This document shows, in pieces, positions 34,700-52,906 of a DNA stretch of 64,000 bases. Origin of the DNA: Candidatus Woesebacteria bacterium (GTDB taxonomy: Bacteria; Patescibacteriota; Microgenomatia; UBA1400; MFAQ01); NCBI GenBank assembly GCA_035389185.1, contig DAOORK010000001.1:331825-395824 (forward strand), given 5' to 3'. The notes under the pieces are model-generated. The model searched no databases, was not told the DNA's origin, and saw nothing but the letters and a program-made list of their open reading frames with translations. The position numbers and the translations under genes were made by a program. Position 1 is the first letter of the stretch, and each line of letters opens with the position of its first letter.

Positions 34700-37293
34700 T
34701 TACTTTTGGATGATCTTAGTAATTTAATACCCATCGTGAGACCAATCATGGCGAGAATTATCCAGTAAGTGGAAGCACCTGTAGCGGGTAGAGTTGTCGT
34801 TGCGCCGAGGACTTCTCCAATTTTAGTTTCTTTCTTTTCAACGTCGTAGGTATCATCTTTTGTCTGCGATTTGACGACGTTGACTTCTGTACCAACGAAG
34901 TTTTCGGCAATGAATTTTGAATCAACACCTGAAGCATAGATGTCTTCATTAGCAACGGCCCAAGCAAGGTCGGTATAAAGACCAGGGTCTTGGGATGAAC
35001 TGATGTCGGCGGTATAGGTAAGAATTACATCAGCGCCTTCCGGGACATCACCAAGGCTCCAAGTTCCTGGTGAGTGATATGTTGGTTCAGAAATAGTGAC
35101 TGGAAGACCATTTACTGTGGCATGATATGAACCTATACGGTAGACAAAGCCTGAAGGCAATAAATCTTCGACTGTCAAACTATTGGCTTGGGCAGACGAG
35201 ACGTGGAGTTTGATAATGAAGTTTACAGAACTACCAGGAGTTTTGTCAGTTGAGGCATCGTTGGACTTACTAATAGTGAGTGTGGGGTTGTATTCACACG
35301 CTTCTTCATCACTGTAGGTAGTTGATGTCACCTCTTCATAATTATTGGCTGTTTCATCAGTACACACCGGAGTTTTGTCGTGACACTCGTTGTCGTTGCC
35401 AAGGTACTGTATCTCTGTACAATCTGGGGTAGGTTCAACACAGTGATTATTTAGAGTCGGTTGATCACCGTAGGCAGAGATTGCATCACCATTTTTGGCA
35501 GTGAAAGCCGGCCAGATGTCGTCCGAGTGACCGCCATGGCCACTAAGCCAATCTATGGCTGAAGCGACTGAGTTTATGGAAACGTCCTGTTCATTGTAGT
35601 CGTGACTGGAGTTTTCACTGGTGGCATGACAGATTGTGACTTTGCTTTCAGTTTGACAACTTGAATCACAGCCGTCGCCATCAATTACGTTTCCGTCGTC
35701 ACAGTATTCCTCTGATTGAATATAGCCGTCGCCAGATGAAGCAATTTCGCAGGCATTTGTACATGAATCAGTGTTTACAGTATTACCGTCATCACATGAC
35801 TCATCACCTTGAGCAAAACCATCACCACAGACTATGGCGTCACAAGCATTGCCGATACCATCGCCATCATCGTCTTGCTGGTTTGAGTTGGCAACGCTGG
35901 CACAGTTGTCACAAACATTGCCTAACATATCGTTGTCGGAATCACTCTGATCTGGATTGGCGGTTGAACGACAGTTATCACACACATCGCCGATACCGTC
36001 AGAATCAGAGTCTGATTGATCTGAGTTGGCAACGCTGGCACAGTTGTCATCACTGTCACAGATACCATCCTCATCGCGATCATTACAAGGAGGAGTGTAA
36101 GTATTGGTGAAAGTACAAACAACCGATTCGTTGGCCTTGAGAACAATGGAGATATTGGGGGAAGCGTTTTTATTCCAACTGGAACTGGAGTTTGCTCCAG
36201 TACAGGAGACACCGGTGAGAGCCCAACCAGAAGCAGGGGCGTCTTCAGTGAAGGTATAAGTACCTGTAGCTATATCACTGAATGTTTGTGAACCGGTATT
36301 GCTTGAAGTTGTGATCGTAAAAGGGGAGATACCGCCGGTTGCGGTAATTCCGAAAGAACCATCGGAATCGACAGTGTTTTTAATTATTTTTATTGAACCT
36401 TTTGGAGATGAAATGGTAATGGTATCTGAACAAGTATTATTTGATTCGTCTCCTTCGATTATGTTGTTTCCTGAATCAACGTTACAGACGCCGCCGGTTT
36501 TGGGGTTTGTATACATGCCTGAGGCGGTAGCTGTGACATTGAAAGATACCGTGAGATAACTCGATGGATTGAAGACCACATGTTTGTCGTTTTTGACCTT
36601 ACAGGTAAGGACTTTTGAACTAATGGAGCAAATCAAATCATTTTCGTGATCGATGTTGTTGTGGACAGAAATATATGGTGTTCCATATGTGAGACCACTG
36701 ATTGGTAGTTCATCGGTAATAACGACTTCATTCTCGTTAAAACGGGCGTCTGCTGATCCAATATTAGTTACTTTTAGACTCCAGATAAAGGTTTGATTAA
36801 TAGAACCTGTTGAACTTACTAGATTATTTGTTTTTTCAATCTTTAGGTCGCTTGGAGCTTTGCATCCGTTTGCCAAGAAAGCCTGATTGTAAGTTGTGTC
36901 GTAATTTTTACCAGGATATGAACAAGAACCATAAGTGTAGCTTGGAATAATGTCATCATCATGAGTTCCATGACCATTGACACTTTCACATTTTGAAATC
37001 GAGTTAATACTTACTGGGTTTTCTGTATATTTTCCACCTTGCCCTTCGTCCCAGTGGCAGATAGTGATATTTGTATTGGGAATTGATGGAGTATCAGTAA
37101 AAGTAGTGGAGGCAACAGTGGTATCTGTGGAATCAGTAACAACGATAGCATAGTCTGGGCGGTATTCTCCAAGAAGAGGAAGGAAGTACATGAATGAACC
37201 AGCTTCGTCAGTAACCACATTTTCGGCATTGGAATAGTTATCGGTTTCGGAAGTTACTGTGGAAGTGTAAGGGGTGTTGGCAAGAAAAAACAT
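34696..37293 (-). CDS. LPXTG-anchored cell-surface protein with thrombospondin type 3-like Ca-binding Cys/Asp repeats (main ORF; the N-terminus is separated by a frameshift)
   Basis: 865 aa. The C-terminal LPATGASTYWIILAMIGLTMGIKLLRSSKSK is an LPXTG motif followed by a TM helix and a basic tail. Internal repeats DSDDNCASVANSDQSDSDSDGIGDVCDNC... and CDDGN Cys-rich repeats are present. There is no signal peptide at the listed Met. The frame stays open upstream to 37575. Confidence 0.75.
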   Translation of the reverse strand: MFFLANTPYTSTVTSETDNYSNAENVVTDEAGSFMYFLPLLGEYRPDYAIVVTDSTDTTVASTTFTDTPSIPNTNITICHWDEGQGGKYTENPVSINSISKCESVNGHGTHDDDIIPSYTYGSCSYPGKNYDTTYNQAFLANGCKAPSDLKIEKTNNLVSSTGSINQTFIWSLKVTNIGSADARFNENEVVITDELPISGLTYGTPYISVHNNIDHENDLICSISSKVLTCKVKNDKHVVFNPSSYLTVSFNVTATASGMYTNPKTGGVCNVDSGNNIIEGDESNNTCSDTITISSPKGSIKIIKNTVDSDGSFGITATGGISPFTITTSSNTGSQTFSDIATGTYTFTEDAPASGWALTGVSCTGANSSSSWNKNASPNISIVLKANESVVCTFTNTYTPPCNDRDEDGICDSDDNCASVANSDQSDSDSDGIGDVCDNCRSTANPDQSDSDNDMLGNVCDNCASVANSNQQDDDGDGIGNACDAIVCGDGFAQGDESCDDGNTVNTDSCTNACEIASSGDGYIQSEEYCDDGNVIDGDGCDSSCQTESKVTICHATSENSSHDYNEQDVSINSVASAIDWLSGHGGHSDDIWPAFTAKNGDAISAYGDQPTLNNHCVEPTPDCTEIQYLGNDNECHDKTPVCTDETANNYEEVTSTTYSDEEACEYNPTLTISKSNDASTDKTPGSSVNFIIKLHVSSAQANSLTVEDLLPSGFVYRIGSYHATVNGLPVTISEPTYHSPGTWSLGDVPEGADVILTYTADISSSQDPGLYTDLAWAVANEDIYASGVDSKFIAENFVGTEVNVVKSQTKDDTYDVEKKETKIGEVLGATTTLPATGASTYWIILAMIGLTMGIKLLRSSKSK

Positions 37294-37400
37294 ACCGGCT
37301 ATCTGAACCGTGTCGGTCGGAGCATAGTCGGCTTTGTCTGTGGTGACAGTTGGCTCGTTGGATGTATTTTCTGCGGGAGGAGAGTTGTTTTTAACTTCTT

Positions 37401-37636
37401 CCGGAGTTGGTTCTACTGTTGGGGTAGCTTCGGGGGTTATCTCGGGAGTAATTTCCGGAGTTATCTCAGGTGTTACTTCGGGAGTTGGAGAAACCTCGGG
37501 AGTTGGATCAATTGTAGGAGTAGCTTCCGGAGTTATTTCCGGAGTTGGTTCTACTGTTGGGGTAGCTTCGGGGGGTTATCTCGGGAGTAATTTCCGGAGT
37601 TATCTCAGGTGTCACTTCGGGAGTTGGAGAAACCTC
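37401..37636. repeat. Imperfect tandem direct repeat (two ~97-bp copies, period ~138 bp) encoding a TPE[IV]TPE repeat; copy 2 carries G6 where copy 1 has G5
   Basis: Copy 1 (37401..37497) and copy 2 (37539..37636) are identical by direct comparison except for one extra G (37570..37575 versus 37432..37436) and a T/C change. Confidence 0.8.
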
Positions 37637-37765
37637 AACTACAGCCGCAGGTGTGGCGTCTTCGGCATACACCGGTAGTGCAACAAAAAATGGGGTAAAA
37701 GATTGAAAGAGAAGACTAAAAGAAGAAATAAACGAAAATATTTTCCTTACTTTATGGTGCTTCAT
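37508..37765 (-). CDS. Signal-peptide-bearing N-terminal fragment of the LPXTG surface protein (out of frame with the main ORF)
   Basis: 85 aa. MKHHKVRKIFSFISSFSLLFQSFTPFFVALPVYA is a signal peptide, followed by TPEVTPEITPEITPEITP. The frame leaves the repeat exactly at the G6 tract; removing one G fuses it in-frame to the 865-aa ORF. Confidence 0.65.
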   Translation of the reverse strand: MKHHKVRKIFSFISSFSLLFQSFTPFFVALPVYAEDATPAAVVEVSPTPEVTPEITPEITPEITPRSYPNSRTNSGNNSGSYSYN

Positions 37766-37841
37766 TTGTTTTTTGGCATTAATACCTATTCAGCTTATAT
37801 TAAGCTATCTGAGGCGTATTGTACTGTTTAATACAGTTTTG

Positions 37842-38165
37842 TCAACAGGGTCTTTTTGTGATAGATGGAGGTGAAGAATAGATGGGTTCGACAGGGGTGG
37901 CAGAACCGTTTACATCGATATCCAGAGCGAGACTTAAAGCATTTGCTATTGAGACACCGACACGAGTACCGGTAAAAGATCCGGGGCCAGGATTGACTTC
38001 AATATCGGTGATGTCTTCCGGCTTTTTGTTTTCTTTTTCGAGACAACCGACCAGAAAACCAAAAACGTCTTGATCTCGTGGTGAGTCGACTTTTCTCACG
38101 TACTCTCGATCGTTTATACGGATAATTGTTTGAGTATTTTGGGTTGAGTCAATATAGAGTTTCAT
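37842..38165 (-). CDS. tsaB: tRNA threonylcarbamoyladenosine biosynthesis protein TsaB (short form)
   Basis: 107 aa. A conserved GPGSFTGTRVGVSIANALS motif (YeaZ/TsaB N-domain) is present. It lies adjacent to tsaE. Confidence 0.6.
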   Translation of the reverse strand: MKLYIDSTQNTQTIIRINDREYVRKVDSPRDQDVFGFLVGCLEKENKKPEDITDIEVNPGPGSFTGTRVGVSIANALSLALDIDVNGSATPVEPIYSSPPSITKRPC

Positions 38166-38599
38166 TTGTGTTCGATGATTTTTATCACTCTTTCATTTTC
38201 GCCGTTGGCTTTGAAAAAGATGTCGAAACGTTTTTGGGGAAGAATATCGGCCAGCTTTTCCGGCCACTCAATGATCAGAATGTTTGATGGATCTGACCAA
38301 ATTTCTTCGATATCAAAGGCTCTGATTTCTTCTACAGAGTTTAGACGATACAGATCGAGATGGTAGAAGGTCTTTATTGTCGGATGATTAGCAACAGGGT
38401 ATTGGCGCATGATGATGAAAGTAGGAGATACGACCCTATCGATACCAAAATACTTTCCGATTCCTTGTGAAAAAGTGGTTTTGCCGGCAGCCAAGTCACC
38501 ATAAAGACAGATGGTTGTTCCCCTTTCCAAAATCGAGGCGATTTTTTCAGCTATTTCTCTTGTTTCTTCGTAAGAAGTGGAGATGTAAGTCTCTTCCAT
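38162..38599 (-). CDS. tsaE: tRNA threonylcarbamoyladenosine biosynthesis ATPase TsaE
   Basis: 145 aa with the Walker A motif YGDLAAGKTTFSQGI, typical of YjeE/TsaE. Confidence 0.75.
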   Translation of the reverse strand: MEETYISTSYEETREIAEKIASILERGTTICLYGDLAAGKTTFSQGIGKYFGIDRVVSPTFIIMRQYPVANHPTIKTFYHLDLYRLNSVEEIRAFDIEEIWSDPSNILIIEWPEKLADILPQKRFDIFFKANGENERVIKIIEHK

Positions 38600-38940
38600 A
38601 GTTTGAATTTTACAATTAAATAAGAAAGAAAAATCATACCGAGGGAGTCGATGGCCACATCACGAAGAAGACCGGTGCGTCCGGGAACAAATAGTTGATG
38701 AGCTTCATCTGTAAAGGCATAGGCCAAGGAAAGCATAAAAGCATAGGCTGGGGATTTTTTGTCTAAAGCACGATACCAAAGTAAGAATAAAATCGAGTAC
38801 TCAAGAACATGAGCTGTTTTTTTGATAAGAAAATCTAGAACATAGACCTCGTTTGAAGGAAGGTCGGGAAAAGAAGAGATAATAAAGATTGCAGCCATCC
38901 ATAGGAGAGCAGGGATAAATTTTGAGATTTTTTGGAGCAT
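38551..38940 (-). CDS. VanZ family membrane protein
   Basis: 129 aa with four TM helices. The KTAHVLEYSILFLL...DEAHQLFVPGRTGLLRDVAID motifs match the VanZ-like family. Confidence 0.6.
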   Translation of the reverse strand: MLQKISKFIPALLWMAAIFIISSFPDLPSNEVYVLDFLIKKTAHVLEYSILFLLWYRALDKKSPAYAFMLSLAYAFTDEAHQLFVPGRTGLLRDVAIDSLGMIFLSYLIVKFKLWKRLTSPLLTKKQEK

Positions 38941-38949
38941 TAGGATATT

Positions 38950-39783
38950 TTAATCATTTCGGTGACGAAAATATAGCCAAGATCCGGAAGTGAGTAGTAA
39001 GAACACCCCAAAGAAAAAGAAATATTTACTATTTACAGGGTTGTTTTTTCTGACCGCTGGGGAAGTAGCTTCAACAAAAATTGATGGAGATGTATCCACA
39101 ACGACTGACTCGGTGGCAATCCCTAAGACATCCGGTGTCAAAGAGGATGAAACCGACGAGATTTTTGGGGTGCTGGTTGGGGCAGGAGTAATCTTAATAG
39201 TAGCTTTTGTGGGTGTTTTTATGGGTGTAGGAGTGTTGGTAGGAGTGGGTGTCGGAGACGATGTGGGGGTCGCCGTAGGAGTGTTGGTTGAAGTTGGAGT
39301 AGGAGTTGGAGTATCAGTCGGAGTAACAACAACTTCTGAGATTTCAACTGAAAGGGTGTTGTCTGACTCTCCCGCCGAAGAAGTGCTATTGCCGGTGTAA
39401 CGTTTTAGTTTGAGAATGTATGTTCCCGGACCAAGATAATCTGAGTCGTCCGGATCGTTTGTAAAAAGAATTTTTATTTTTTGGTCGTTTTCCAGTTTAA
39501 TAAAGTTTTCAGTAATAAATTCTTTTTCCGGTGAAGAAATGTAGTTTATCCACTCCCCTTTTTGACTCCACATTTTCCCGAAATAGTGAGGATCTCCTGG
39601 AGCGGTGAGAACCGTTTGGACAAAACATGAAGAGGAAGAGGCAAGCCCACTAACAAGAGCTTCGACAGAATAGAAGCTATCACTTTTTTCGACATTGGAA
39701 ATGGTGAGAGAAATGGCGGCTGATGCCACCTTTGGAAAGACGCAAAAACACAGTAGAAACAGCACGGGCAGGATTTGTTTCAC
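38950..39783 (-). CDS. Secreted Thr/Pro-rich surface protein with C-terminal membrane anchor
   Basis: 277 aa with a signal peptide, a folded N-domain, a ~60-aa TPTxTP linker (TPTDTPTPTPTSTNTPTATPTSSPTPTPTNTPTP...) and a C-terminal hydrophobic segment with an RHRND tail. Confidence 0.55.
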   Translation of the reverse strand: MKQILPVLFLLCFCVFPKVASAAISLTISNVEKSDSFYSVEALVSGLASSSSCFVQTVLTAPGDPHYFGKMWSQKGEWINYISSPEKEFITENFIKLENDQKIKILFTNDPDDSDYLGPGTYILKLKRYTGNSTSSAGESDNTLSVEISEVVVTPTDTPTPTPTSTNTPTATPTSSPTPTPTNTPTPIKTPTKATIKITPAPTSTPKISSVSSSLTPDVLGIATESVVVDTSPSIFVEATSPAVRKNNPVNSKYFFFFGVFLLLTSGSWLYFRHRND

Positions 39784-39873
39784 TGTAATTTAATATACAG
39801 TATGTGATATAAAAAATGAGTTATATCTGCTAAATGATATAATATAGGTCTGAACTTTAAAAAGGAGGAATGA

Positions 39874-40959
39874 GTGACAAATAGATTCGATTTTTCTGTT
39901 CTTAAAAGACCAGCTGTCCCTCACAACGTGATTATCATCGGAGATTTTCTCAAAGATCTAGATGATGAACATTCGTTATGTGGAGTCGCCGGGCTAATCA
40001 AACTGGGGTTCGTGTCTTTGAAAGCAGTGGTTGCTAACTTGGCTCCTGCGGAACTAAGAGCAAGAGGAGCTAAGGGGACATTGAATACTCTCGGGTTGAC
40101 GTCGATCCCTGTTGGGGTAGGTTTACCGATAATTGAGGGAGATGTTGACCCTTATGAAGCTAATCTACCCTACCTAGCTTCTCCTGACGAAGTGATTCAT
40201 TATGGCACTATGCTGGTAAAAACTCTTAGGGAGTGTCCTGATAATTCCGTTATTCTCGTGTTGCAGTCCGCAATGACCGACGCAACTGTGTTGCTTTCTA
40301 TGTACAGGAATCTGGTGATGGATAAGGTCAAAACAGTGGCAATTATGGGAGGTGTCGAAACTGATAGAGAGAAAGTCATACTTTGCGATGACGGTATGAT
40401 GATCCCAAACAACGCCAATAATAACAGTTTTGATATGCAGTCCGCGATCTGGCTTTATAGACAGTTGCAGAGGAAAAATATACCCTTGGTGATCACTACA
40501 AGAGAAGCTGCTTATGCAGCACAAGTACCATTTAAGGCATACGATGAGTTTGAAGAAACCGGCAACCCGATTGGCGCTTGCCTTAAAAACCGTCAGTTGC
40601 CTTCGATGCAACATCTCTGGGTAGCGGCTTGTTCGCCTGCCGGATCAGAAATACGCGGAACATTGCCTGACGACAGGAATCGAGAATGGTTTGTCAGAGT
40701 GTACTGCGATGGAGTTGACCCTGAGATTGGATCTACCGACAGTATCTGGCCGTACGTCCGCTGTTTTAATCTCTACGACCCGACGAACCTGTATGCGGCG
40801 ATTCCGGAACTTAGGGAGTACTTTCTGAAACCACATATCGTTCATGTTGGCGAGACGGACCATATGATAGTAGGTCTTTCCAAACAAAATAATGGTGTCG
40901 TCAATCCTGAACAATTTTCCAAGTTTATGGTGGATATTGAGTTACTTGGATTGCAGTAG
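39874..40959 (+). CDS. Hypothetical cytoplasmic protein, weakly nucleoside-hydrolase-like (IUNH fold?), compositionally distinct
   Basis: 361 aa with a GTG start 5 nt after an AAGGAGG RBS. The N-terminal IIIGDFLKDLDDE acidic motif, a central VAIMGGVETD and NNSFDMQSAIW loosely resemble inosine-uridine nucleoside hydrolase motifs. GC content and codon choice are visibly higher than in the flanking genes. Confidence 0.3.
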   Translation: MTNRFDFSVLKRPAVPHNVIIIGDFLKDLDDEHSLCGVAGLIKLGFVSLKAVVANLAPAELRARGAKGTLNTLGLTSIPVGVGLPIIEGDVDPYEANLPYLASPDEVIHYGTMLVKTLRECPDNSVILVLQSAMTDATVLLSMYRNLVMDKVKTVAIMGGVETDREKVILCDDGMMIPNNANNNSFDMQSAIWLYRQLQRKNIPLVITTREAAYAAQVPFKAYDEFEETGNPIGACLKNRQLPSMQHLWVAACSPAGSEIRGTLPDDRNREWFVRVYCDGVDPEIGSTDSIWPYVRCFNLYDPTNLYAAIPELREYFLKPHIVHVGETDHMIVGLSKQNNGVVNPEQFSKFMVDIELLGLQ

Positions 40960-40964
40960 ATTTT

Positions 40965-40990
40965 ACCCAGCCGAAAGGCTGGGTTTTTTG
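40965..40990 (+). terminator. Rho-independent terminator (likely bidirectional, between convergent genes)
   Basis: Stem acccagcc, loop gaaa, stem ggctgggt, followed by a T6 run immediately after the stop at 40959. An A-rich stretch on the other side can serve the minus-strand gene ending at 40996. Confidence 0.75.
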
Positions 40991-40995
40991 TGATT

Positions 40996-42201
40996 TTAAT
41001 TAACCGTAACCTTATCGAAACGGAAAATTTGAGAGGTACTATATGTATCTGAAAACTTTTTATCGTAACCGTTTTCCATATAAGGATCGTTCATTATGTA
41101 GCCATCACCATTCTTTCCTTTGATGACTATAAAGTGGGTACCATAGCCAGTATTGAGTCCGGCAATAATCGGCCGGCCGGCATTGAGTTCGTTATCAACG
41201 GCATCGCTGGACATTCCTTGCTGTCTGTTTACTGTTACGCCGTTTACAGTCCAGCTGCCAGCATTCATATAAGCAGTGGAAGGGAAAAATGGATTTGTAC
41301 TTGCAGCAATATCAGATGGTTTAATATTTTTTCCATAATGAGAAGCAATCATGGCAGTTGAAGTAATTAAACAACCGACTCTTCCCACAGTTTCGCGAGA
41401 GTTACCAATAATTTGAGAGAACCATATTGAGTCTCTTTGACTGTAATAACATCCCCAACCATCACAGTGAGTCTGATTGCTTAAAGGAGTTGCTCCTGAC
41501 GTAAAACCTCTCATAGCGGCAACCAAAGCACTGGCTTGAGCTAACAATGTCTGGTATCTCTTTTCATCATTTTGGGTGAGAATTAGAACCTTTTGTTTCT
41601 CGGCTTGCTGGGCGTTAAGAGTGTTCTTCTGGGCAACAAGTTTTGCTTTTAATGCCTCAACTTCTTTTTGTTTGGCAACTTTATCTGTTTTTCTTTGATC
41701 ATAATCAAGTCTGGATTTTTCCAGCTCGGCCAGTATTAGCTGGTCTTTTGTTTTGATGGTATTTAGATACTTTACTTTATTGAAGTAGTCCCCGATTGAG
41801 TCGGAAGAAAAAATTAAATCGAATGAAGTCACACGTGTCTGTTTGTAACTCTCACGAACACGGGCTAAATAAATTTTTTCTAACTGATCCATGGAGTCAG
41901 TAACGGTTTCGAGTACCCCATCAAGAACATCAACTTCTTTTTCGAGTGTTTTTATCTGAGCTTGAGTTCGATTTATCTGAGCTTGGGCGAGGTTAATTTT
42001 GGAATTTAAAGTAGTTATTGTTTGTTTGAGAGTGGCCTGACTTGATTGATTGGCTGAGATACTCGATTCACAAGCTTTTATAAAATCATCTAGCTGGTCT
42101 GAAGAAATACTTTGGGGGTCGGCGTCACAAGTTGTGGCAAAAACATTCTTTGGGATCAAAAAAATGATGCATACCAGAAGTAGGGTGACTTTCCATTTCA
42201 T
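40996..42201 (-). CDS. Secreted coiled-coil protein with C-terminal papain-like cysteine peptidase domain (C39-like/CHAP-like); putative FtsEX-regulated peptidoglycan hydrolase (PcsB/CwlO analogue)
   Basis: 401 aa with a signal peptide, ~220 aa of Q/K/E-rich heptad-like coiled coil, then a domain with candidate catalytic Cys (VGCLITSTAMIASHYG) and His (GTHFIVIKG). It lies directly downstream of ftsX-ftsE. Confidence 0.6.
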   Translation of the reverse strand: MKWKVTLLLVCIIFLIPKNVFATTCDADPQSISSDQLDDFIKACESSISANQSSQATLKQTITTLNSKINLAQAQINRTQAQIKTLEKEVDVLDGVLETVTDSMDQLEKIYLARVRESYKQTRVTSFDLIFSSDSIGDYFNKVKYLNTIKTKDQLILAELEKSRLDYDQRKTDKVAKQKEVEALKAKLVAQKNTLNAQQAEKQKVLILTQNDEKRYQTLLAQASALVAAMRGFTSGATPLSNQTHCDGWGCYYSQRDSIWFSQIIGNSRETVGRVGCLITSTAMIASHYGKNIKPSDIAASTNPFFPSTAYMNAGSWTVNGVTVNRQQGMSSDAVDNELNAGRPIIAGLNTGYGTHFIVIKGKNGDGYIMNDPYMENGYDKKFSDTYSTSQIFRFDKVTVN

Positions 42202-44385: not shown

Positions 44386-45495
44386 TCAAATTTGCCGCGT
44401 CGGTGCGAAGAACTTCAACTCTGCCTCGATAAATTCATCCAGATTGCCATCAAGGACCGACTCTGGATTGCCGGATTCATAGTCCGTACGTAGATCTTTA
44501 ACTAGTTTGTAGGGATGCAGAACATAAGAACGGATCTGGGTTCCCCAACTAGCTTGAGTTTGTTCTCCCTTGATTTGGTTTAACTCACTTTGACGTTTGG
44601 CTTCCTGAATTTCCCAGAGTTTGGAGCGGAGCATATCCATAGCAATTTTGCGATTTTGGACTTGATATCGCTGAGTCTGACACTCGACAACAATACCTGT
44701 GGGGAGATGTTTGATACGAACAGCAGTACTAACCTTGTTGACGTTTTGCCCACCTGCACCGCCTGAACGACTAGCTTCAAACTCGATATCTTCATCACGA
44801 ATTTCAATATCAGTATTCTCCGGAAGAATCGGGGTCACCTCAACACCAGCAAAAGAAGTCTGACGAAGTTTATCGGCATTGAAAGGTGACTGGCGAACTA
44901 AGCGGTGAGTTCCTTTTTCGTTTTTGAGGAAACCAAAAGCGAAACGCCCATGAACCATGTAAGTGACGGATTTGATACCGGCTTCGTCACCAGGCGAGTA
45001 CTCAACGGTTTCGTAGTTCCAGCCTCTTTTTTCAAAAAATCTGGTGTACATTCGAGAAAGCATACTGGCCCAGTCCATAGCTTCGGTACCCCCTTGGCCA
45101 GCTCTGATCGTCAGAATTGCCTCTGAAGGGTCGTATTTCTCGGAAAGAAAGGTGACTAGCTCGACTTTTTCGATGTGTTTTTCTAAGGTCTCTTTCAAAA
45201 TAAGAATATCGGTGTCCATAGAGTCATCTGACTGAGCTACAGCCATCTCAAAAAGCTCTACCAAGTTTTTGTATTCTGAGGTCAGCCCTTCAATCGAAGC
45301 AATCAGATCTCGAACCTCGGCAAGGCTAGACATTATTTTTTTGGCATTATCTTCGTCCTGCCAAAGTTCAGGCTTCCCCGACTCGATTTCAAGTTTTTGT
45401 TTTTCTTGTTCGAGAGAGGCAAAGTCTATCTTTTTTTGGAGATCTTCTATACGTCTTTGAAGATCGTTTAAATTAAGTTGGGTTTCGGATAGCAT
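44386..45495 (-). CDS. prfB: Peptide chain release factor 2 (single uninterrupted ORF)
   Basis: 369 aa. The SPF tripeptide (LVRQSPF) is diagnostic for RF2 as opposed to the RF1 PxT motif. A GGQ motif is present ([10 protein letters not shown]). Confidence 0.85.
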
Positions 45496-45568
45496 TCTTG
45501 TATTTTACAGCTTTAGAAAGCGATATACTGAAGGTATATAATCTGAGGGTTGGTATTTTTTATGTAAT

Positions 45569-46612
45569 ATGAAACTTCTAAAAATTGTAAAAAGATTCTG
45601 GCTTTTATTTCTCATCGGTTTTTTGATCGGTGGGGGTATTGTGTGGTTTTCTAGTTCTGCCAAAGCAAAAAGTAACGAAGCAAATAAGTTCACTGTTAAG
45701 AGAGAGACTTTGACTGAAGTAGTGTCTCTTTCCGGTGAGATTGACGCTGAGGAAAAAGCTTCCCTGCGTTTTCAGACGTCCGGACACTTGACTTGGGTTG
45801 GGGTAAAAGAAGGTGATTTTGTGAAAAAATACCAGTCTTTGGCATCTCTCGACAAAAAAGAACTCCAAAATAGTATGAGTAAACTTTTGAATACTTACTC
45901 GAAGTCTAGATGGGATTTTGAACAAGCCCAAGCAGACAACAAAGATTGGCAAACCGATGGTATGACAGATGAAGCTCGTGACACCGTAAAGAGAACTTTA
46001 GACAAATATCAATTTGACTTAAACAACTCAGTATTGTCGGTGGAATCCCAATCCTTGGCGATGAAGTACGCTACTTTATGGACTCCGATCGAAGGAATTG
46101 TAACCAGTGTTGAGTCTCCTTTGGCCGGACAAAATATCACTCCAGCTACCGCCACATTTGAGGTGGTAAATCCTAAAACAATATTTTTCTCTGCAACTGC
46201 AGATCAGACAGAAGTTGTTTCTTTTTCTGTTGGCATGAAGGGAAAACTCTCGCTTGACTCCTTTCCTGATACAGAACTTGTCGGCGAGATCGTTAGTGTT
46301 GGATTTGTACCCAAAACTGGAGAGTCATCGACGGTTTATGAAATAAAAATCGCCGTAGATACAACACCTATTGGAGACAAAATTAAAATGGGAATGACAG
46401 GTGACGCCGAGTTTGTTTTGAAAGAGATTAAAGACGTGTTGGTAGTTCCAGAAAGTTATATTAAAAAAGAAAATGGTAAATATTACGTGACGGTATACGA
46501 GGGGAAAATAAAGACCAAAAAAGAAATTACTATTGGGGAAACCGTCGAGGGTTTGGTAGAAATTACAGGAGGACTAAATGAAAAAGACGTCATCTATTAT
46601 CAGCCTAAGTAA
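45569..46612 (+). CDS. Efflux transporter periplasmic adaptor subunit (MacA/HlyD family membrane fusion protein)
   Basis: 347 aa with an N-terminal TM helix and a coiled-coil region plus beta-barrel domain pattern. It lies upstream of MacB-like ATPase and permease genes. Confidence 0.7.
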   Translation: MKLLKIVKRFWLLFLIGFLIGGGIVWFSSSAKAKSNEANKFTVKRETLTEVVSLSGEIDAEEKASLRFQTSGHLTWVGVKEGDFVKKYQSLASLDKKELQNSMSKLLNTYSKSRWDFEQAQADNKDWQTDGMTDEARDTVKRTLDKYQFDLNNSVLSVESQSLAMKYATLWTPIEGIVTSVESPLAGQNITPATATFEVVNPKTIFFSATADQTEVVSFSVGMKGKLSLDSFPDTELVGEIVSVGFVPKTGESSTVYEIKIAVDTTPIGDKIKMGMTGDAEFVLKEIKDVLVVPESYIKKENGKYYVTVYEGKIKTKKEITIGETVEGLVEITGGLNEKDVIYYQPK

Positions 46613-47276
46613 TATCTCTAAGGAATATGTGATGGGTGATGAATCGGTTTTTTCGGCATTGTCGGATGTTAGTTTAGAAATTCATAAAGGTGAGTATTCT
46701 GCCATTGTGGGACAGTCCGGATCCGGAAAATCAACTTTGATGCATATTATTGGACTTCTGGATAAACCAACTCGAGGGAAAATTATCATCAATGGAAAAG
46801 ACACGGCTAAATTAAGCGATGACGAAACAAGTAAAGTAAGAAATCGATTTGTGGGATTTGTTTTTCAACAGTTTAATTTATTAAACAAACAAACTATTCT
46901 CGAGAATGTTTTACTGCCGGTAATGTATTCGAGAGAAAAGCTGGATTTTGATCCAGAAAAAAGAGCTCTTGAGTTACTTGAAAAATTTGGCATTTTGTCT
47001 AAAAAAGATTCGTATCCAAATAAAATCTCTGGGGGTCAGCAACAAAGAGTCGCGATAGCGAGAGCACTAATAATGAGTCCACAGTTACTTTTGGCTGATG
47101 AACCAACGGGTAATTTGGATACAAAAACCGGTAATGAAATACTGAGACTATTTGAAGACCTCAATAAGGAAGGAATTACTGTTTTGCTCGTGACTCACGA
47201 GCCGGATATTGCAGCTAGAACAAATAGACAAATTCGAGTGATGGACGGAAAAATTGTGGAGGATAACAAAAAATGA
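46578..47276 (+). CDS. ABC transporter ATP-binding protein (MacB/LolD-like)
   Basis: 232 aa with Walker A GQSGSGKST, signature ISGGQQQRVAIARAL and Walker B LLLADEPTGNLD. Confidence 0.85.
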   Translation: MKKTSSIISLSNISKEYVMGDESVFSALSDVSLEIHKGEYSAIVGQSGSGKSTLMHIIGLLDKPTRGKIIINGKDTAKLSDDETSKVRNRFVGFVFQQFNLLNKQTILENVLLPVMYSREKLDFDPEKRALELLEKFGILSKKDSYPNKISGGQQQRVAIARALIMSPQLLLADEPTGNLDTKTGNEILRLFEDLNKEGITVLLVTHEPDIAARTNRQIRVMDGKIVEDNKK

Positions 47277-48475
47277 GTAACATCGCCAACATCAAACAGT
47301 TATTTAAATCTGCTTTCGCCGATTTCCGACGCGATAAAGTACGCACGGGACTTACTTCTCTCGGTATCACGATTGGTGTTCTCTCTGTTGTGCTACTGAT
47401 TGCTTTGGGCTTGGGTCTGAAAAACTATATCCAGGATCAGTTTGAGAGTATGGGAGCAAATCTTGTTATGATCATGCCCGGTTCCGGATTTAGCAGTGGG
47501 AACATGGGCCCGGGAATGATGACGGGGACCGTGAAGTTTGATGAAAAAGATGTAAAAAACCTAAAGAAAATTGAGGAGCTGAAGTATGTGGTGCCAATAT
47601 TTATGTCTTCCACGACAATAAGTTCGGCTAACAAGGAAAAAATTGGCACGGTTATGGCAGTTAATGAGGAGGCTTTTCCTTTGTTAAATATAAAAATGCA
47701 GGTCGGTGAGACTTGGGGAAAAACTGAACTTAACAAGAAATCTAAAGTAGCAGTGATTGGATACACAATGACTGAAGATTTGTTTGAAAACATAAATGAT
47801 GCAATTGGAAAATCTATTACGGTTGAAGGAATGAGAATCAAGGTAATTGGAGTTTCTCAAAAGACCGGAGACCCAGACCAAGACGCGGCTATCTATATTC
47901 CATACACAACGTCTTTTGGATCAATTAATCCGGATAAAACTTTTTGGGGAATATATCTCGGAGTAATCGATAAAGACGATGTAACTGCGGTGACGGAAAA
48001 AGCAAAGGAAATCTTGTTGGAAAGATATGATAAAGATAAGTTCTCGGTAACGGAACAATCAGAGATCCTCTCAACGATTGATCAGATTTTTGGTATTATC
48101 AATATCGTTTTGGTCGCCATTGGCTCAATTTCTCTTCTTGTCGGAGGAATTGGGATTATGAATATCATGTATGCAACAGTAACAGAAAGAACTCGTGAAG
48201 TGGGTATTCGACGCGCTCTAGGGGCGACAAAAAGAGATATTCTCTTACAGTTTTTATCTGAGTCTACTTTATTGTCTGTTTTTGGAGGACTGATGGGATT
48301 AGTTCTTGCTACAGTAATTGTAATGTTGGTTAGGATTTGGTTCCCTGTAGCCTTGAATTTGGTAGCTGTTCTGGTTGCTATCGGCGTATCTAGCGCGATT
48401 GGAATTTTCTTTGGGGTATCCCCTGCCAAAAAAGCGGCCAATCTGTCCCCGATCGATGCTATCAGATATGAGTAG
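47273..48475 (+). CDS. ABC transporter permease (MacB-like, FtsX-fold with large periplasmic domain)
   Basis: 400 aa with an N-terminal TM helix, a ~220-aa periplasmic domain and three C-terminal TM helices (MacB_PCD/FtsX family architecture). Confidence 0.8.
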   Translation: MSNIANIKQLFKSAFADFRRDKVRTGLTSLGITIGVLSVVLLIALGLGLKNYIQDQFESMGANLVMIMPGSGFSSGNMGPGMMTGTVKFDEKDVKNLKKIEELKYVVPIFMSSTTISSANKEKIGTVMAVNEEAFPLLNIKMQVGETWGKTELNKKSKVAVIGYTMTEDLFENINDAIGKSITVEGMRIKVIGVSQKTGDPDQDAAIYIPYTTSFGSINPDKTFWGIYLGVIDKDDVTAVTEKAKEILLERYDKDKFSVTEQSEILSTIDQIFGIINIVLVAIGSISLLVGGIGIMNIMYATVTERTREVGIRRALGATKRDILLQFLSESTLLSVFGGLMGLVLATVIVMLVRIWFPVALNLVAVLVAIGVSSAIGIFFGVSPAKKAANLSPIDAIRYE

Positions 48476-48491
48476 GATATAATCCTCGGTA

Positions 48492-49046
48492 ATGAAATCT
48501 GAGTTTATTCAAGTTTCTCCTGTGGAGACATTTTTGTATCCGAAATATTTTAAGGAAAGGATCCCTTATGTAAGCGATGAATGTAAATTTGTTCCATGCG
48601 GATGGGCAAAAATTGAAGGAGAGTTTTTCCCTTTGGGATATAAAGTGGTGACTATGGATTTGAAATCTTTGGGATTGCGGAAAAACCCAAATATTATGAC
48701 TTTCCCGATTGGCGAGTGGGTTACGCTAGCTGAAGAAGAGGTACTTGTCGGCAATAGTGATGAGGGAGGAATATGGTCGGCTTTAAACAAGGGTAGTATA
48801 AAAACATTAAAAAACTACATGATGAGTGAGTATGGGGTGGATACAAGAGCGTTTTTAACTGCGATGCGTCGACCAGTGTATGCCAATAGTTATCGCATAA
48901 AATCACAAGGAGTGATGCTTATAGAAGAATATTTAGTGAACCAAATCTTTTGCCAAGGTAATGTTTTGAATATCGGAACCGGTGCGATCAAACCCCGGAA
49001 CTTCCAGAATGAGAGGCAGAGAGCTGAAGGTAGGATGATTAATTAA
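48492..49046 (+). CDS. Hypothetical protein (doubtful 3' region; overlaps convergent nfo by ~114 nt)
   Basis: A 184-aa ORF. The first ~150 codons lie in otherwise unassigned space after the permease gene. No recognisable domain. Confidence 0.3.
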   Translation: MKSEFIQVSPVETFLYPKYFKERIPYVSDECKFVPCGWAKIEGEFFPLGYKVVTMDLKSLGLRKNPNIMTFPIGEWVTLAEEEVLVGNSDEGGIWSALNKGSIKTLKNYMMSEYGVDTRAFLTAMRRPVYANSYRIKSQGVMLIEEYLVNQIFCQGNVLNIGTGAIKPRNFQNERQRAEGRMIN

Positions 49047-49769
49047 ATTTCTCAAACCAACAAGACCAATCTCCCCTTCTCCGATGTTGGCGTGCATATC
49101 ACGATGGGAGTCAAAGACAGTGGCAGAGTCATTTAAATGCAGACAGACCAGTTTGTCGGCCAGACCGAGACTAGTTAGCTGTTGAGAAAATTTCTCGACC
49201 GATGAGACATCTTGAATATTCACACCAGATTCAAACAAATGGGCAGAGTCGAGACACATCTTGAGGCGAGGGTTGTTGATCTTATTGATAAGGTAACTGA
49301 TTTCTTCCGGAGAGCCAATTTTGCCATTTTGACCAGCGTCATTTTCCAAAATTAGATCGCAGTCTGCGGTAGAAGAAAGAATTCTTTGAATAACAGAGAC
49401 TATTTGATCCTTGACTGTATCAAAACCTGCTCCTAGGTGAGACCCGATATGAACAATGACTCCGGATGCTCGAATGCGGGCGCCATTTTGCATGTCGATT
49501 ATGAGAGAGTTGATCGATTTTTCTAAGATGTCTTGGTTTTGTGAGGCAAGGTTAACTAAGTAAAGAGCGTGAATAAAAGTGGGGTGAATGTCCAGTTCTT
49601 TTGCCAAGTGAAGATATTCTGAAACATCTTTTTCGGGAAAAGGTTTTCTAAACCAAAGTCGAGGAGAGCCGGCGAACATCTGTAAACAATTTCCGCCGAT
49701 TTTATTCGTCGTTTTTAAAGCGTTGGTGATGTTTCCGGCCATAGAGACATGGCCGCCGATTCTTCTCAT
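48933..49769 (-). CDS. nfo: Deoxyribonuclease IV (AP endonuclease family 2, endonuclease IV)
   Basis: 278 aa with HIGSHLG and LILENDAG motifs and the overall TIM-barrel Nfo pattern. Confidence 0.8.
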   Translation of the reverse strand: MRRIGGHVSMAGNITNALKTTNKIGGNCLQMFAGSPRLWFRKPFPEKDVSEYLHLAKELDIHPTFIHALYLVNLASQNQDILEKSINSLIIDMQNGARIRASGVIVHIGSHLGAGFDTVKDQIVSVIQRILSSTADCDLILENDAGQNGKIGSPEEISYLINKINNPRLKMCLDSAHLFESGVNIQDVSSVEKFSQQLTSLGLADKLVCLHLNDSATVFDSHRDMHANIGEGEIGLVGLRNLINHPTFSSLPLILEVPGFDRTGSDIQNITLAKDLVH

Positions 49770-50431
49770 TTTTCTTCAATAGTGATCGAGCTGATGACCA
49801 CTTGTGTTAGAGGTGCATCATTGGCATCTGTCTGAACACTGGCTATTGCATCAAGTGTTTTTAAGCTGGCAGAGTCTGAAGCGTCTATACGGCCAAAAAT
49901 GGTGTAGTTTTTGGGGAGAGCCATGTCTTTGTGCATAATAAAGAACTGGGAACCGTTGGTATTTGGGCCGGAGTTGGCCATGGCAAGCGTACCACGAGTA
50001 TAGTTTTCGGTAACTGGCTCGTCGGCAAACTTATAGCCCGGACCTCCAGTACCGATGCCGTTCGGATCACCGCCTTGGATCATAAAATCGGAGATGACGC
50101 GATGGAAAATAAGACCGTCATAAAAAGGTTTCTCGGACACTTTTTTCCCCGTATTAGGATTAATTTTGACGCCTTTGGCCAGTTCAACGAAGTTGCGGAC
50201 GGTGTTGGGAGCTATCTTGGGAAAAAGGATGACTTTGATAGTTCCTTTGCTGGTGTTGATTACGGCGGTAATGTTTTCGGCTAAGGGGGCTTGGGTTGGT
50301 GTTGGGTTTTCCATATTGGTTGGATTGACTTTAATATCTGTTAATTGGTAATCATGAACACTTGGTGTTTGGGTAAGGGTGCAGGCTGAGAAAAGTATAG
50401 CCGAGACAGCAATATATAGAAGATTTTTCAT
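49766..50431 (-). CDS. Cyclophilin-type peptidyl-prolyl cis-trans isomerase, lipoprotein
   Basis: 221 aa. The signal sequence with lipobox LFSAC is followed by GLIFHRVISDFMIQGGDP...GSQFFI cyclophilin motifs. Confidence 0.85.
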   Translation of the reverse strand: MKNLLYIAVSAILFSACTLTQTPSVHDYQLTDIKVNPTNMENPTPTQAPLAENITAVINTSKGTIKVILFPKIAPNTVRNFVELAKGVKINPNTGKKVSEKPFYDGLIFHRVISDFMIQGGDPNGIGTGGPGYKFADEPVTENYTRGTLAMANSGPNTNGSQFFIMHKDMALPKNYTIFGRIDASDSASLKTLDAIASVQTDANDAPLTQVVISSITIEEK

Positions 50432-50440
50432 AAAACTATA

Positions 50441-51151
50441 TTATATTGAAAAATCAGTGTTGCCAAAAGTAAGTTTGGATATTATTTCTTCGACTTCACG
50501 TTTCCTTATAGATAAGTTGTTTGCTGTAGATATCTGTAACGACTCGGAGGCTAGTTTTTGTGCATCTTCCAGATTACCTTCTTTTGCTAATACTTTGACT
50601 AAGGTATTAAGAGCACCAGTTTCCCAGACGCGAACAGAATAATCGGTAAGGTCTCCGGTCCTGATATCTTGAAGAGATTCTTTGATAAGGGCAATTCCCT
50701 CTTCTTTGGAACCGAGAACATATTTTGCTTCACCAATATGGGTTTTTATTCTGCCCTTTTCCGGAATCGAACTAGTGGAAACGTCCAAAGCGGCCTCAAA
50801 AACCGGGAGAGACTCTGCAGTTTTCCCGTCCATAAATAAAGCGTCGGCATAGGCCATATAGGCTACGGAAAGTGTAGCTCCTTCAAGACTGTCTTTGTTT
50901 GCTTCACCAATTGCATAAGCTTCTTTGCCAAAAGCAGTGGTGAGATTTCGATAGACATGACTATCTTCTTTTCGTGAAAGAATTTTGTAAATGAGACTAT
51001 GGCCTGCGAGACAGTGAACTAGCTGCTGTGGATCGCCGGATGGAATTAATTCAAGCAAGCATTCGGTAAATAGTTTGGCAGATTCGGAGTATTGTTCTTG
51101 TTCGCGAAGTGTGTTTGCTTGGCCAAGTTTTTGCTCTATTTGTTCATTCAT
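50441..51151 (-). CDS. Tetratricopeptide repeat protein
   Basis: 236 aa with helical repeats of TPR-like periodicity (A/Y/L-rich pairs of helices). Confidence 0.5.
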   Translation of the reverse strand: MNEQIEQKLGQANTLREQEQYSESAKLFTECLLELIPSGDPQQLVHCLAGHSLIYKILSRKEDSHVYRNLTTAFGKEAYAIGEANKDSLEGATLSVAYMAYADALFMDGKTAESLPVFEAALDVSTSSIPEKGRIKTHIGEAKYVLGSKEEGIALIKESLQDIRTGDLTDYSVRVWETGALNTLVKVLAKEGNLEDAQKLASESLQISTANNLSIRKREVEEIISKLTFGNTDFSI

Positions 51152-51173
51152 AAGTTCATGATAACATGGGAGT

Positions 51174-51509
51174 ATGCAAATGCCGGTAATCGTTGGTTTA
51201 GTGGTGGCTGTAATATTCTTAGTGGCTTTTTCCGGATGGTTTTATCATCTGGTAACCGGGTGGAAAGCATACGTGCTTGATGATGTTCTTTTCCGTTATC
51301 GAATAGTGGGCGTTTCACTGTTGTCTTTTTTGGTTATGGGAGGAACATTTTACGGAATTGCTCTAATAAATGAGTGTCCAAACGAGGAAAGAGTAGGCTT
51401 TTTTGCCGGACTAAAATGCAAGGAATACAACAAGATAAAAGTTAATGCAGAAAGATTATTTCTTTCCCAAGACAAGTCTCTCGAGCCAAACAACGAAACG
51501 ATAGATTAG
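51174..51509 (+). CDS. Hypothetical membrane protein (2-3 TM)
   Basis: 111 aa, hydrophobic. It overlaps the 3' end of the convergent DUF4258 gene by 54 nt. Confidence 0.35.
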   Translation: MQMPVIVGLVVAVIFLVAFSGWFYHLVTGWKAYVLDDVLFRYRIVGVSLLSFLVMGGTFYGIALINECPNEERVGFFAGLKCKEYNKIKVNAERLFLSQDKSLEPNNETID

Positions 51510-51782
51510 CCTCTCTGGGAATGAACGTTTGACTGTTTCTTTTTGCTGTTTTCCATATACTGGATTCCACCAAGAGCTGGTGACAACCCAGTCATCTCCC
51601 TGACGTTTTACGGCGGCAACAATCTTGTATCCATTTATTACTTTGATGTGTTTTCTGGAATTGGTTGTCGTACTATCTTGGACTTCATCAGGAAAACGAA
51701 TGGCGGTATCAACCCATTGAGGATCAAGTCCTCGCTGTTTGATTCTTTCTCTGAGATGTTTGGTCCAGATTACCTTACCCAT
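51456..51782 (-). CDS. DUF4258 domain protein (RelE/ParE-superfamily toxin-like)
   Basis: 108 aa. WTKHLRERIKQRGLDPQWV matches the DUF4258 H-x3-R-x3-(E/Q)RGI core. Confidence 0.45.
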   Translation of the reverse strand: MGKVIWTKHLRERIKQRGLDPQWVDTAIRFPDEVQDSTTTNSRKHIKVINGYKIVAAVKRQGDDWVVTSSWWNPVYGKQQKETVKRSFPERLIYRFVVWLERLVLGKK

Positions 51783-52906
51783 TATTTTGTAGGTTTAACC
51801 AAATCCGGATCCTCATAAAGAGGGTTTGTTGACACAGGTGTTTCGGGAATGGGAGTTGGCTCGGGAGACATCAAGGGTTCACTCATGACTTGGGGTTGAG
51901 GAATTGGGGAAGAAACGACTGGAGTGGAAGTGATTGCTGGTGAGGCAACCGGAGGTTCTATTGCAGGTGATGGCGTGGTTGTGTCTGGAGCGGCAACAGG
52001 TTCGGGTTCTGGTTGGGGAAGAAGGTCAGAGAGATGGTTGTTGAGGGGAGTGCTGGCTGGCTCTGGACTTACAGATTGATTCCCCGGAGTAATGTCAATT
52101 GGAGCAGAACTAGTTGGCTGATTGGCAGGAACAGCTTGAGGTGAACCATCCTGAGGAGAAATCATATTAGGATCCATATTGAGATCAATAACGGGAGAGT
52201 TGGTGTCGTCCATATTTTGTGTTGGAGTTGTTTTATTTTTAATAGTGATTTCAGGAATGTGTATAGTCTGACTTAAGTTTATAACATATTGGACAACCGA
52301 AGCGACCTCTGTAGGATCGAGTGCCTGAGAAAGATCTCGAGAGGCGTTACTTTTTTGGAAAAGGGAAGTTTTAATAAGGCCGGGATATACAGCTGTAACT
52401 TTGATATTCTCTTCTTCGAGGTCATCTTGTAGACACTTTGTAAATCCGGTGATGGCCCACTTTGAGGCATGGTAGACAGAACGATCTTTCTTGGCACAAA
52501 GACCATCTTGGGAAATGATGTTTACTATCTGACCACTTTTTTGGGTGCGCATTTGAGGGAGAACAAGCTTGGAAAGGAGAATTGTACCGGTGGTGTTGAT
52601 ATCGATCACTTCTTTGATTTTGATTGGGTCGTTTTGATCCAACTGGCCTTCGATCCAAATACCAGCGTTATTGACTAAGACGTCAATTTTTTGATATTTG
52701 GAGACAACTTGATCAACGGCGATTTTAAGAGAGGCATAATCAGTCATTTCCGCCTCGACATAATCACAGCCGACTTCCTTGGCTGCGGTCTCAAGTTTGG
52801 TTTTATTGTGAGCAAGAATAATGACTTGATTGCCATTAACTAGTTTTTGGGCAATGGCTTTTCCTAAGCCATCACTTCCTCCGGAAATTAGAATTACTTT
52901 GGGCAT
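51782..52906 (-). CDS. SDR family oxidoreductase with ~140-aa Pro/Ser/Thr-rich disordered C-terminal extension
   Basis: 374 aa. The N-terminus VILISGGSDGLGKAIAQKL (TGxxxGxG), NNAG and YHASKWAI (YxxxK) mark a classic SDR. The tail PQPEPEPVAAPDTTTPSPAIEPPVASPAITSTPVVSSPIPQPQ... is low complexity. Confidence 0.75.
   Translation of the reverse strand: MPKVILISGGSDGLGKAIAQKLVNGNQVIILAHNKTKLETAAKEVGCDYVEAEMTDYASLKIAVDQVVSKYQKIDVLVNNAGIWIEGQLDQNDPIKIKEVIDINTTGTILLSKLVLPQMRTQKSGQIVNIISQDGLCAKKDRSVYHASKWAITGFTKCLQDDLEEENIKVTAVYPGLIKTSLFQKSNASRDLSQALDPTEVASVVQYVINLSQTIHIPEITIKNKTTPTQNMDDTNSPVIDLNMDPNMISPQDGSPQAVPANQPTSSAPIDITPGNQSVSPEPASTPLNNHLSDLLPQPEPEPVAAPDTTTPSPAIEPPVASPAITSTPVVSSPIPQPQVMSEPLMSPEPTPIPETPVSTNPLYEDPDLVKPTK

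Follow-up and report, generated by a model that had tools for sequence, protein, structure and literature searches.

The 64,000-nucleotide stretch of contig DAOORK010000001.1 from a Candidatus Woesebacteria bacterium (hereafter the window) encodes proteins with tracts unusually rich in serine, threonine and proline (S+T+P), together with a set of glycosyltransferase (GT) genes. A preliminary description of this DNA had picked out three such tracts, those of an LPXTG surface protein, of a 277-residue protein and of the C-terminal tail of a short-chain dehydrogenase/reductase (SDR), and had proposed them as candidate acceptors for PMT-like glycosyltransferases encoded in the same window. All three tracts lie where they had been placed and are far above chance by a binomial calculation based on the average S+T+P content of the called open reading frames (ORFs) of the window (17.9%). 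When scored in 30-residue segments, the 277-aa protein peaks at 27 of 30 residues (90%, P ~1.5e-17) and the SDR tail at 19 of 30 (63%, P ~4.5e-8), and a segment of at least 50% S+T+P is found in only five called ORFs. One of these five, the short ORF 48566-48790, was taken as spurious. The GC content is ~37-44% throughout the window.

A disordered protein fused to the SDR and its DUF4258-like neighbour

The SDR gene and the genes that follow it are arranged as listed here.

52241..52906 (-): classical SDR domain, aa 1-222 (Pfam adh_short, E 8e-51)
52214..52240 (-): junction KNKTTPTQN, nine codons, A-rich and G-poor, taken to be a former intergenic spacer that is now translated
51782..52213 (-): gene of the fused disordered protein, aa 232-374 and the stop codon, from the invariant Met232
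52136-52213 (-): disordered-protein motif MDDTNSPVIDLNMDPNMISPQ..PQ
52082-52099 (-): disordered-protein motif IDITPG
52022-52036 (-): disordered-protein motif HLSDL
51785-51826 (-): disordered-protein C-terminal NPLYEDPDLVKPTK
51456..51782 (-): 108-aa DUF4258-like protein of the RelE/BrnT (BECR) fold, starting within a TAATG that overlaps the stop codon of the SDR fusion
51174..51509 (+): 111-aa protein with two transmembrane (TM) segments, convergent, sharing 54 nt with the 3' end of the DUF4258-like gene and conserved in synteny

The enzyme domain is a classical SDR in which the motifs GGSDGLG (residues 9-15), NNAG (79-82), S132 and Y145xxxK149 are invariant in the alignment. An AlphaFold2 model has a predicted local distance difference test (pLDDT) score above 90 over most of this domain, and scores of 43-57 in the tail, where the only secondary structure is one 3-residue helical turn. 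The tail (aa 232-374) is 24% proline, 12% serine and 9% threonine. A long form was seen in 75 of the 120 best SDR homologues, and the first and last tail motifs are both present in 70 of these. The tails can be aligned at four islands only, separated by P/T/S/A-rich spacers of very variable length. The first island reads NMD[DN]...P.IDLNIDP[DN]MI..Q...PQ, the methionine of NMDD being invariant; the second, [GV]IDITPG, is present in one to three copies; the third is HL[SA]D[ILV].P; and the fourth is the terminal SPLAEDPDLVKLIK. Scans of the window and of the first 11 loci found these motifs nowhere else, and therefore the tail is not a tag common to several proteins. The possibility that the tail is an assembly artefact was rejected, the identical protein being present in NCBI (GCA_029561095.1), two JGI and Logan assemblies. 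A YxxxD signal of the type VII secretion system, an FtsZ-like C-terminal peptide and a clamp-binding motif were also considered for the tail, and given that the residues were unconserved or mismatched, these were rejected or left as analogy.

A profile built from 22 tails was searched against 1.84 billion representative proteins and gave 49 clusters, most of which were stand-alone proteins of ~100-260 aa that start exactly at the junction methionine and finish with the terminal motif. The stand-alone proteins begin MD[DN]N/T... and have neither signal peptide nor TM segment. Neither the disordered protein nor three of its stand-alone relatives matched a Pfam family. In the closest split relative (P0035) an SDR of 222 aa (77% identical) is followed by a stop codon, a 24-nt gap, a 166-aa gene and a 108-aa gene; the stop codon plus the gap make 27 nt, the length of the nine junction codons (KNKTTPTQN) of the window protein. 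In each of the 22 species loci with an SDR fusion the junction is rich in A and poor in G, as an intergenic spacer would be. At locus L012 a stand-alone disordered-protein gene directly follows secA with no SDR gene present, and at locus L013 a stand-alone gene is immediately followed by a DUF4258 gene. Stand-alone ORFs could in principle be artefacts left by the truncation of SDR genes, but L012 and 13 loci that lack an SDR speak against it. Hence, the P/S/T-rich region of the preliminary description is present, but it is not mere low complexity: it has four conserved motifs, and the SDR "tail" is a separate, conserved and previously undescribed gene product fused in frame.

The idea of the SDR tail as an acceptor, exported or glycosylated in some other way, drew on its high S/T/P content, to which can be added the position of the SDR gene directly downstream of secA. 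However, the signal peptide and topology check found no signal peptide and no membrane segment, the SDR-tail protein lacks any hydrophobic segment (maximum 19-residue Kyte-Doolittle mean 0.94) and has its Rossmann cofactor motif GGSDGLG as early as residues 9-15, and the stand-alone proteins are likewise devoid of export signals. GT-C enzymes act on translocated substrates, and as the SDR tract is cytoplasmic, it cannot serve as a substrate of GT-C enzymes that face the periplasm. Conserved linear motifs such as those of the tail are, moreover, typical of binding sites. The protein is thus cytoplasmic with a tail conserved in its homologues, an outcome that the preliminary description itself had named as telling against its proposal, and we regard a role of the tail as acceptor as very improbable.

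The 108-aa product of the next gene scored 24.4 bits against DUF4258, just below the cut-off of 25 bits, and has 119 homologues of 50-81% identity, nearly all of 101-118 aa. It has the BECR (RelE/BrnT) fold looked for in a toxin. A published catalogue lists DUF4258 among the BECR-fold toxins of the RelE/ParE superfamily, with antitoxin/toxin gene order and activity unknown (PMC11980606). We scanned one genome per species, which gave 37 loci, mostly labelled Collierbacteria, of which 35 were informative. At all 35 the ORF that ends -4 to +7 nt from the DUF4258-like start closes with [LFY]xE[DN]PxxV; this ORF is SDR-fused at 22 loci and stand-alone at 13, with no SDR within 2.6 kb of the latter. 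The conserved gene order is serS, S11 peptidase, methyltransferase, secA, the disordered-protein gene with or without the SDR, DUF4258, the convergent two-TM gene, TPR, cyclophilin and nfo. The DUF4258-like protein therefore has an adjacent partner in antitoxin-then-toxin order, as indicated by the TAATG overlap and by the 35 of 35 loci. In this the pair resembles type II RelE/ParE (BECR) modules, DUF4258 modules included, in which a small RelE/BrnT-fold protein gene overlaps the gene upstream, and the disorder of the upstream partner recalls PaaA2, the disordered antitoxin of ParE2.

In FtsZ with its C-terminal peptide and in SSB with its tail, a folded domain is joined through a long disordered linker to a conserved docking peptide at the C-terminus. 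The fused form is similar in having an enzyme domain, a P-rich linker of variable length and a conserved terminal peptide, and differs in that linker and peptide are an independent gene product in many genomes. We know of no sequence similarity of the terminal peptide to those of FtsZ or SSB. An alternative is that the disordered protein is just a passive linker or solubility bristle and that its adjacency to the DUF4258 gene is functionally meaningless. The lack of a predicted fold and of any family match would fit such a role. However, the four motifs and the invariant C-terminal E-[DN]-P..V persist despite unalignable spacers in proteins of ~100 to 260 aa, the two genes are adjacent at every informative locus with a gap of -4 to +7 nt, and in 13 species the protein is present without any domain to link. 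We thus consider a passive role improbable.

Two further observations concern this locus. The EYNKIKV C-terminal region of the 111-aa two-TM protein is also conserved in the SDR-less relative L013, and this protein may be a third member of the module. Many public records of metagenome-assembled genomes with this Collierbacteria-type locus (L014, L015, L019 and others) are titled "uncultured Pseudomonadales" or "Spirochaetia", titles that look like taxonomic mislabels.

Surface proteins with Ser/Thr/Pro-rich stalks

The other tracts belong to a group of surface-protein genes that includes a sortase gene.

38950..39783 (-): 277-aa surface protein with signal peptide, ~120-aa domain, PT-repeat linker, VLGIAT and C-terminal TM helix
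39163-39324 (-): PT linker of the 277-aa protein
39112-39129 (-): VLGIAT motif of the 277-aa protein
38968-39024 (-): C-terminal TM helix of the 277-aa protein
37664..37765 (-): signal peptide of the LPXTG gene, aa 1-34, MKHHKVRKIFSFISSFSLLFQSFTPFFVALPVYA (from translation; hydrophobic N-terminal segment after deletion of one C)
37296..37663 (-): T/P/E-rich tract of TPE[IV] units, with two copies of a 138-nt repeat
37569..37574 (-): C6 run, one C more than the C5 of the second repeat copy (C6 in the NCBI and JGI contigs, L009 and L010)
34696..37293 (-): LPXTG body, 865 aa, with SpaA_4 prealbumin-like, TSP3 and DUF4215 Cys-rich repeats
34699-34791 (-): sorting signal LPATG, TM helix and RSSKSK at the end of the 865-aa ORF
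33770..34699 (-): 309-aa exported protein with signal peptide, domain, S/T-rich stalk (33860-34036), VLGIST, C-terminal TM helix and basic tail
33187..33762 (-): sortase (Pfam PF04203, E 4e-24)
32274..33152 (-): membrane protein whose CAP domain is separated from its C-terminal TM helices by an S/T-rich segment (32460-32600)

Exported proteins do carry the tracts here: the 277-aa protein has a signal peptide, and so does the LPXTG protein once its reading frame is repaired. Two more exported proteins with S/T-rich stalks, the 309-aa and CAP-domain proteins, can be added to those first described. The linker that the preliminary description assigned to the 277-aa protein is present as a PT linker, but is confined to 39163-39324. 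Pfam has no family for this protein, and an exact look-up of it with its GTG start gave no match; its family was recovered through a homology search, which gave about 150 homologues, every organism-labelled one of which was from Microgenomates/Patescibacteria. The 22 homologues that were aligned are all built alike. A signal peptide and a ~120-aa domain, in which YFG..T and GPG.Y.LK..RYT are conserved, precede a PT-repeat linker some 40-70 residues long; after the linker come a conserved VLG[DE]ST, a variable stretch and a C-terminal TM helix that ends in basic residues. The PT linker, kept in 22 of 22 homologues, is thus a structural stalk conserved in a surface protein with a membrane anchor. 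Directly downstream of the 277-aa gene is a gene for a VanZ-like membrane protein (38551-38940, -), and one homologue (P0152, 410 aa) holds both regions in a single protein, which suggests that the 277-aa and VanZ-like proteins are functionally linked.

The motif VLG[IA][ST]T is found 27-52 residues from the C-terminus of three of the surface proteins (39112-39129, ~33860-33874 and ~34798-34812, all -). In the LPXTG protein it lies 6 residues before LPATG, and across the 277-aa family its L and G are fixed or almost fixed. The motif may serve in a form of processing or sorting specific to this lineage; as a sortase motif, VLGxST is too distant from the TM helix in the 277-aa family.

The 865-aa LPXTG ORF is followed by the 309-aa protein gene and then the sortase gene. 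The frame of the ORF is open upstream through the TPE[IV] tract, which has no start codon, and the signal peptide, a good one, is in a different frame from the body owing to one extra C in the run 37569-37574. The corresponding position of the second copy of the 138-nt repeat has C5. Removal of one C gives a 1022-aa protein composed of the signal peptide, the T/P/E-rich tract (the mature N-terminus is 21% T, 21% P and 17% E) and the body. Hence, the TPE[IV] tract noted in the preliminary description is real, but it is not joined to the LPXTG body as assembled. The C6 is identical in the NCBI and JGI contigs compared. The 865-aa product is present in NCBI, JGI and ENA; for the repaired in-frame 1022-aa product there is no record. 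A search for C5/C6 polymorphism by pattern scan of metagenomes gave no contig, and a protein-based scan gave one distant fragment only. The gene could have decayed to a pseudogene, vary in phase or be read through a +1 frameshift at CCC-C.

On the antisense strand the PT and TPE repeats (38990-39400, +, and 37334-37678, +) form long G/V/S-rich ORFs, and such ORFs are called as genes in public annotation (L009 1800-2210, L010 3522-3857). In the NCBI record one of them stands in place of the real 277-aa gene.

Glycosyltransferases and their possible acceptors

The glycosyltransferases at issue lie in a glycan cluster.

1364..3163 (-): PMT_2 GT-C with a C-terminal PBP2a-N-like (NTF2-like) domain
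8312..9862 (+): PMT_2 GT-C (Pfam)
14193..15677 (-): Wzx/MOP-family flippase
15649..18875 (-): two adjacent PMT_2 GT-C genes, 15649-17361 and 17361-18875
18862..19623 (-): polyprenyl-phosphate-sugar-synthase-like GT2 whose gene overlaps the start of the GT-C gene 17361-18875 (best NCBIfam ArnC/PgfS, below cut-off)
20160..21644 (-): PMT_2 GT-C
21641..22357 (-): polyprenyl-phosphate-sugar-synthase-like GT2 whose gene overlaps the start of the GT-C gene 20160-21644
23495..24649 (-): GT2 with a fused GtrA/DPMS transmembrane domain
28437..31991 (-): dTDP-rhamnose genes, rmlA, B, C, D-like (gene table of contig L009)

The "many PMT-like genes" of the preliminary description are five ORFs with Pfam PF13231 (PMT_2) matches of 33-51 bits, at 11-50 kb from the tracts. 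Three of the five also match PF02366 weakly (27-32 bits, cut-off 22.7), and in the same three the first loop contains a D-E pair. PMT_4TMC, which follows PF02366 at the C-terminus of true PMT enzymes, and MIR, a domain of the eukaryotic ones, gave no Pfam match in any of the five, and the paralogues are mutually 17-21% identical. Four paralogues searched singly against solved structures gave no GT-C match, solved PMTs included, and the sole solved match of a joint paralogue profile was ArnT (5ezm, E 6.5e-7). The five genes are generic GT-C enzymes. Among the GT2 proteins the best NCBIfam similarities are to ArnC, PgfS and dolichyl-P hexose transferase, all below the equivalog cut-offs; GT2 genes of the kind looked for in a polyprenyl-phosphate-sugar donor synthase (Ppm1/Dpm1-like) are thus present in the cluster. 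The cluster also holds several GT1, GT2 and GT4 genes, a rhamnosyltransferase-like GT2 and a methyltransferase. Residues ~396-506 of the 1364-3163 product resemble the NTF2-like N-terminal domain of PBP2a/MecA (MecA_N; PDB 4bl3, E 8e-5). Three large cluster ORFs have no Pfam family (11006-14296, 1096 aa; 3931-5463, 510 aa; 22378-23493, 371 aa), and the last of these has a weak NCBIfam match to "cell surface glycopolymer formation". The domain content of the PMT_2/GT2 set cannot decide the acceptor.

PT linkers are widespread in bacteria regardless of glycosylation status, and that stalk and glycosyltransferase genes lie together in 64 kb of a small genome says little for glycosylation. The acceptor must also be translocated, which the 277-aa protein would be, as would the LPXTG protein after frame repair, in contrast to the SDR fusion. 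Judged from their sequences, the extracytoplasmic stalks of the four surface proteins are plausible candidate O-glycosylation acceptors. The glycosylation proposal finds partial support in the case of the exported proteins and is rejected in that of the SDR.

The PMT_2/GT2 pairs might instead carry out multi-component transmembrane glycosylation of a rhamnose-containing polysaccharide, a teichoic-acid-like polymer or a lipid, the stalks being unglycosylated spacers. The GT-C genes are located within a cluster that encodes Wzx, other glycosyltransferases, a methyltransferase and the candidate glycopolymer-formation protein, with rmlABCD near; their sole solved relative, ArnT, is a lipid A transferase; and one paralogue carries the PBP2a-N-like domain, which would be extracytoplasmic. 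Systems composed of a GT-A enzyme, a flippase and a GT-C enzyme decorate lipoteichoic acid (LTA), wall teichoic acid (WTA) and rhamnose polysaccharides (PMC8035078), and most characterised Gram-positive PMT_2 GT-Cs (GtlB, GttB, GtcC, CsdD, CsdF, GtsC, GacL) act on LTA, WTA or rhamnan (PMC8035078 Table 2). The sets of GT2, flippase and PMT_2 GT-C in an rml-bearing glycan cluster resemble GacI/J/K/L, CsdAB/CD/EF, GtlAB and ArnC/ArnT. Unlike those systems, the set of this candidate phyla radiation (CPR) bacterium has five very divergent paralogues. Such divergence leaves room for several acceptors, proteins included, and decoration of a glycopolymer does not exclude protein glycosylation. We put the chance of this explanation somewhat short of even.

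Alternatively, the PMT_2 enzymes could use polyprenyl-phosphate sugars made by the adjacent GT2 proteins to O-glycosylate the PT, TPE and ST stalks outside the membrane. In streptococci pairs of GT-A and GT-C enzymes (GtrB with PgtC2, PgfS with PgfM1) O-glycosylate extracytoplasmic S/T-rich disordered regions and LPXTG adhesins (PMC12041528), and actinobacterial Pmt is a further precedent for O-glycosylation of such regions (PMC8698208). The likeness here lies in exported S/T(/P)-rich stalks, GT2 genes beside GT-C genes and GtrA/Wzx-type flippases. The ArnC/PgfS/DPM-like character of the neighbouring GT2 proteins, the PF02366 matches above cut-off and D-E pairs of three of the five PMT_2 proteins, and the extracytoplasmic position of the stalks also favor this route. 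However, the GT-C enzymes are PMT_2 rather than YfhO proteins and have neither PMT_4TMC nor MIR domains; ArnT, and no solved PMT, was matched; the GT-C genes are 11-36 kb from those of the stalk proteins and outside their operons, and are not genetically linked to the acceptor genes; and one proposed acceptor, the SDR tail, is cytoplasmic. The occurrence of PT linkers in bacteria of any glycosylation status also argues against it. A literature search on CPR/Patescibacteria together with PMT or protein glycosylation found nothing relevant. We regard stalk glycosylation as possible but doubtful, and for the PMT_2/GT2 pairs the decoration of a glycopolymer is no less likely than that of proteins.

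The locus as a whole

The best explanation of the whole, to which we assign a probability of about 0.7, is that the three tracts are of two unrelated kinds: stalks of surface proteins on the one hand, and on the other a disordered cytoplasmic protein whose gene is fused to that of the SDR and paired with a gene encoding a RelE-like protein. Like the TPE tract and the PT linker, the S/T stalks on the 309-aa and CAP-domain proteins would be extended extracytoplasmic spacers of sortase- or membrane-anchored proteins in a Gram-positive-type CPR cell. They would hold folded domains off the membrane and may be O-glycosylated by the GT2/GT-C pairs. The disordered gene would encode a cytoplasmic protein of ~100-260 aa having an MD[DN] start, repeated [IV]ID[IL]TP-type motifs and an ...[LFY]xE[DN]PxxV... 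end. In one subclade the SDR stop codon would have been lost and the 24-nt spacer translated, such that the ORF became continuous with that of the SDR. The constant partner of the disordered protein would be the translationally coupled downstream DUF4258 protein of RelE/BrnT fold, on which it may dock, probably via the conserved C-terminal peptide, and which it would thereby control. The SDR fusion would then bring an enzyme into the complex of the two proteins.

Several points weigh against this explanation. The docking of the disordered protein on the DUF4258 protein is inferred. There is no obvious Shine-Dalgarno sequence for independent translation from Met232, and the SDR event may have been a split rather than a fusion. 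As assembled the LPXTG gene is frameshifted, and thus the TPE tract may not be expressed on an anchored protein. The resemblance to type II toxin-antitoxin modules is also incomplete. The upstream protein is entirely disordered, 100-260 aa in length, P/S/T-rich and built of several repeated motifs, and having no predicted fold and no Pfam match, it is without the DNA-binding domain that type II antitoxins typically have. Unlike mobile, patchily distributed modules, the pair is a syntenic and highly conserved core locus beside secA (50-81% identity) and is SDR-fused in most species. PADLOC gave no match for the disordered, DUF4258-like, two-TM or TPR proteins.

A bolder proposal, which we think rather unlikely, is that the MD[DN]...E[DN]PxxV proteins are a new family of wholly disordered multi-motif regulators, the domesticated core partner of a RelE/BrnT-fold RNase-like protein in Collier-/Woesebacteria-type CPR, with recurrent SDR fusion coupling an NAD(P)-dependent enzyme to RNase control. 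If this were true, the SDR fusion would tie the metabolic state of the cell to RNase control.

The analysis removes a false lead, in that a cytoplasmic enzyme had been mistaken for a glycosylation substrate, and illustrates that a "low-complexity tail" can conceal a separate conserved gene. The search for protein O-glycosylation in CPR bacteria is narrowed to the PT/ST stalks of four surface proteins, with glycopolymer decoration as an equally likely alternative. Finally, an unannotated family of disordered proteins with short conserved motifs is defined; in a lineage about which little is known it is linked, at a core locus, to a RelE-like protein.

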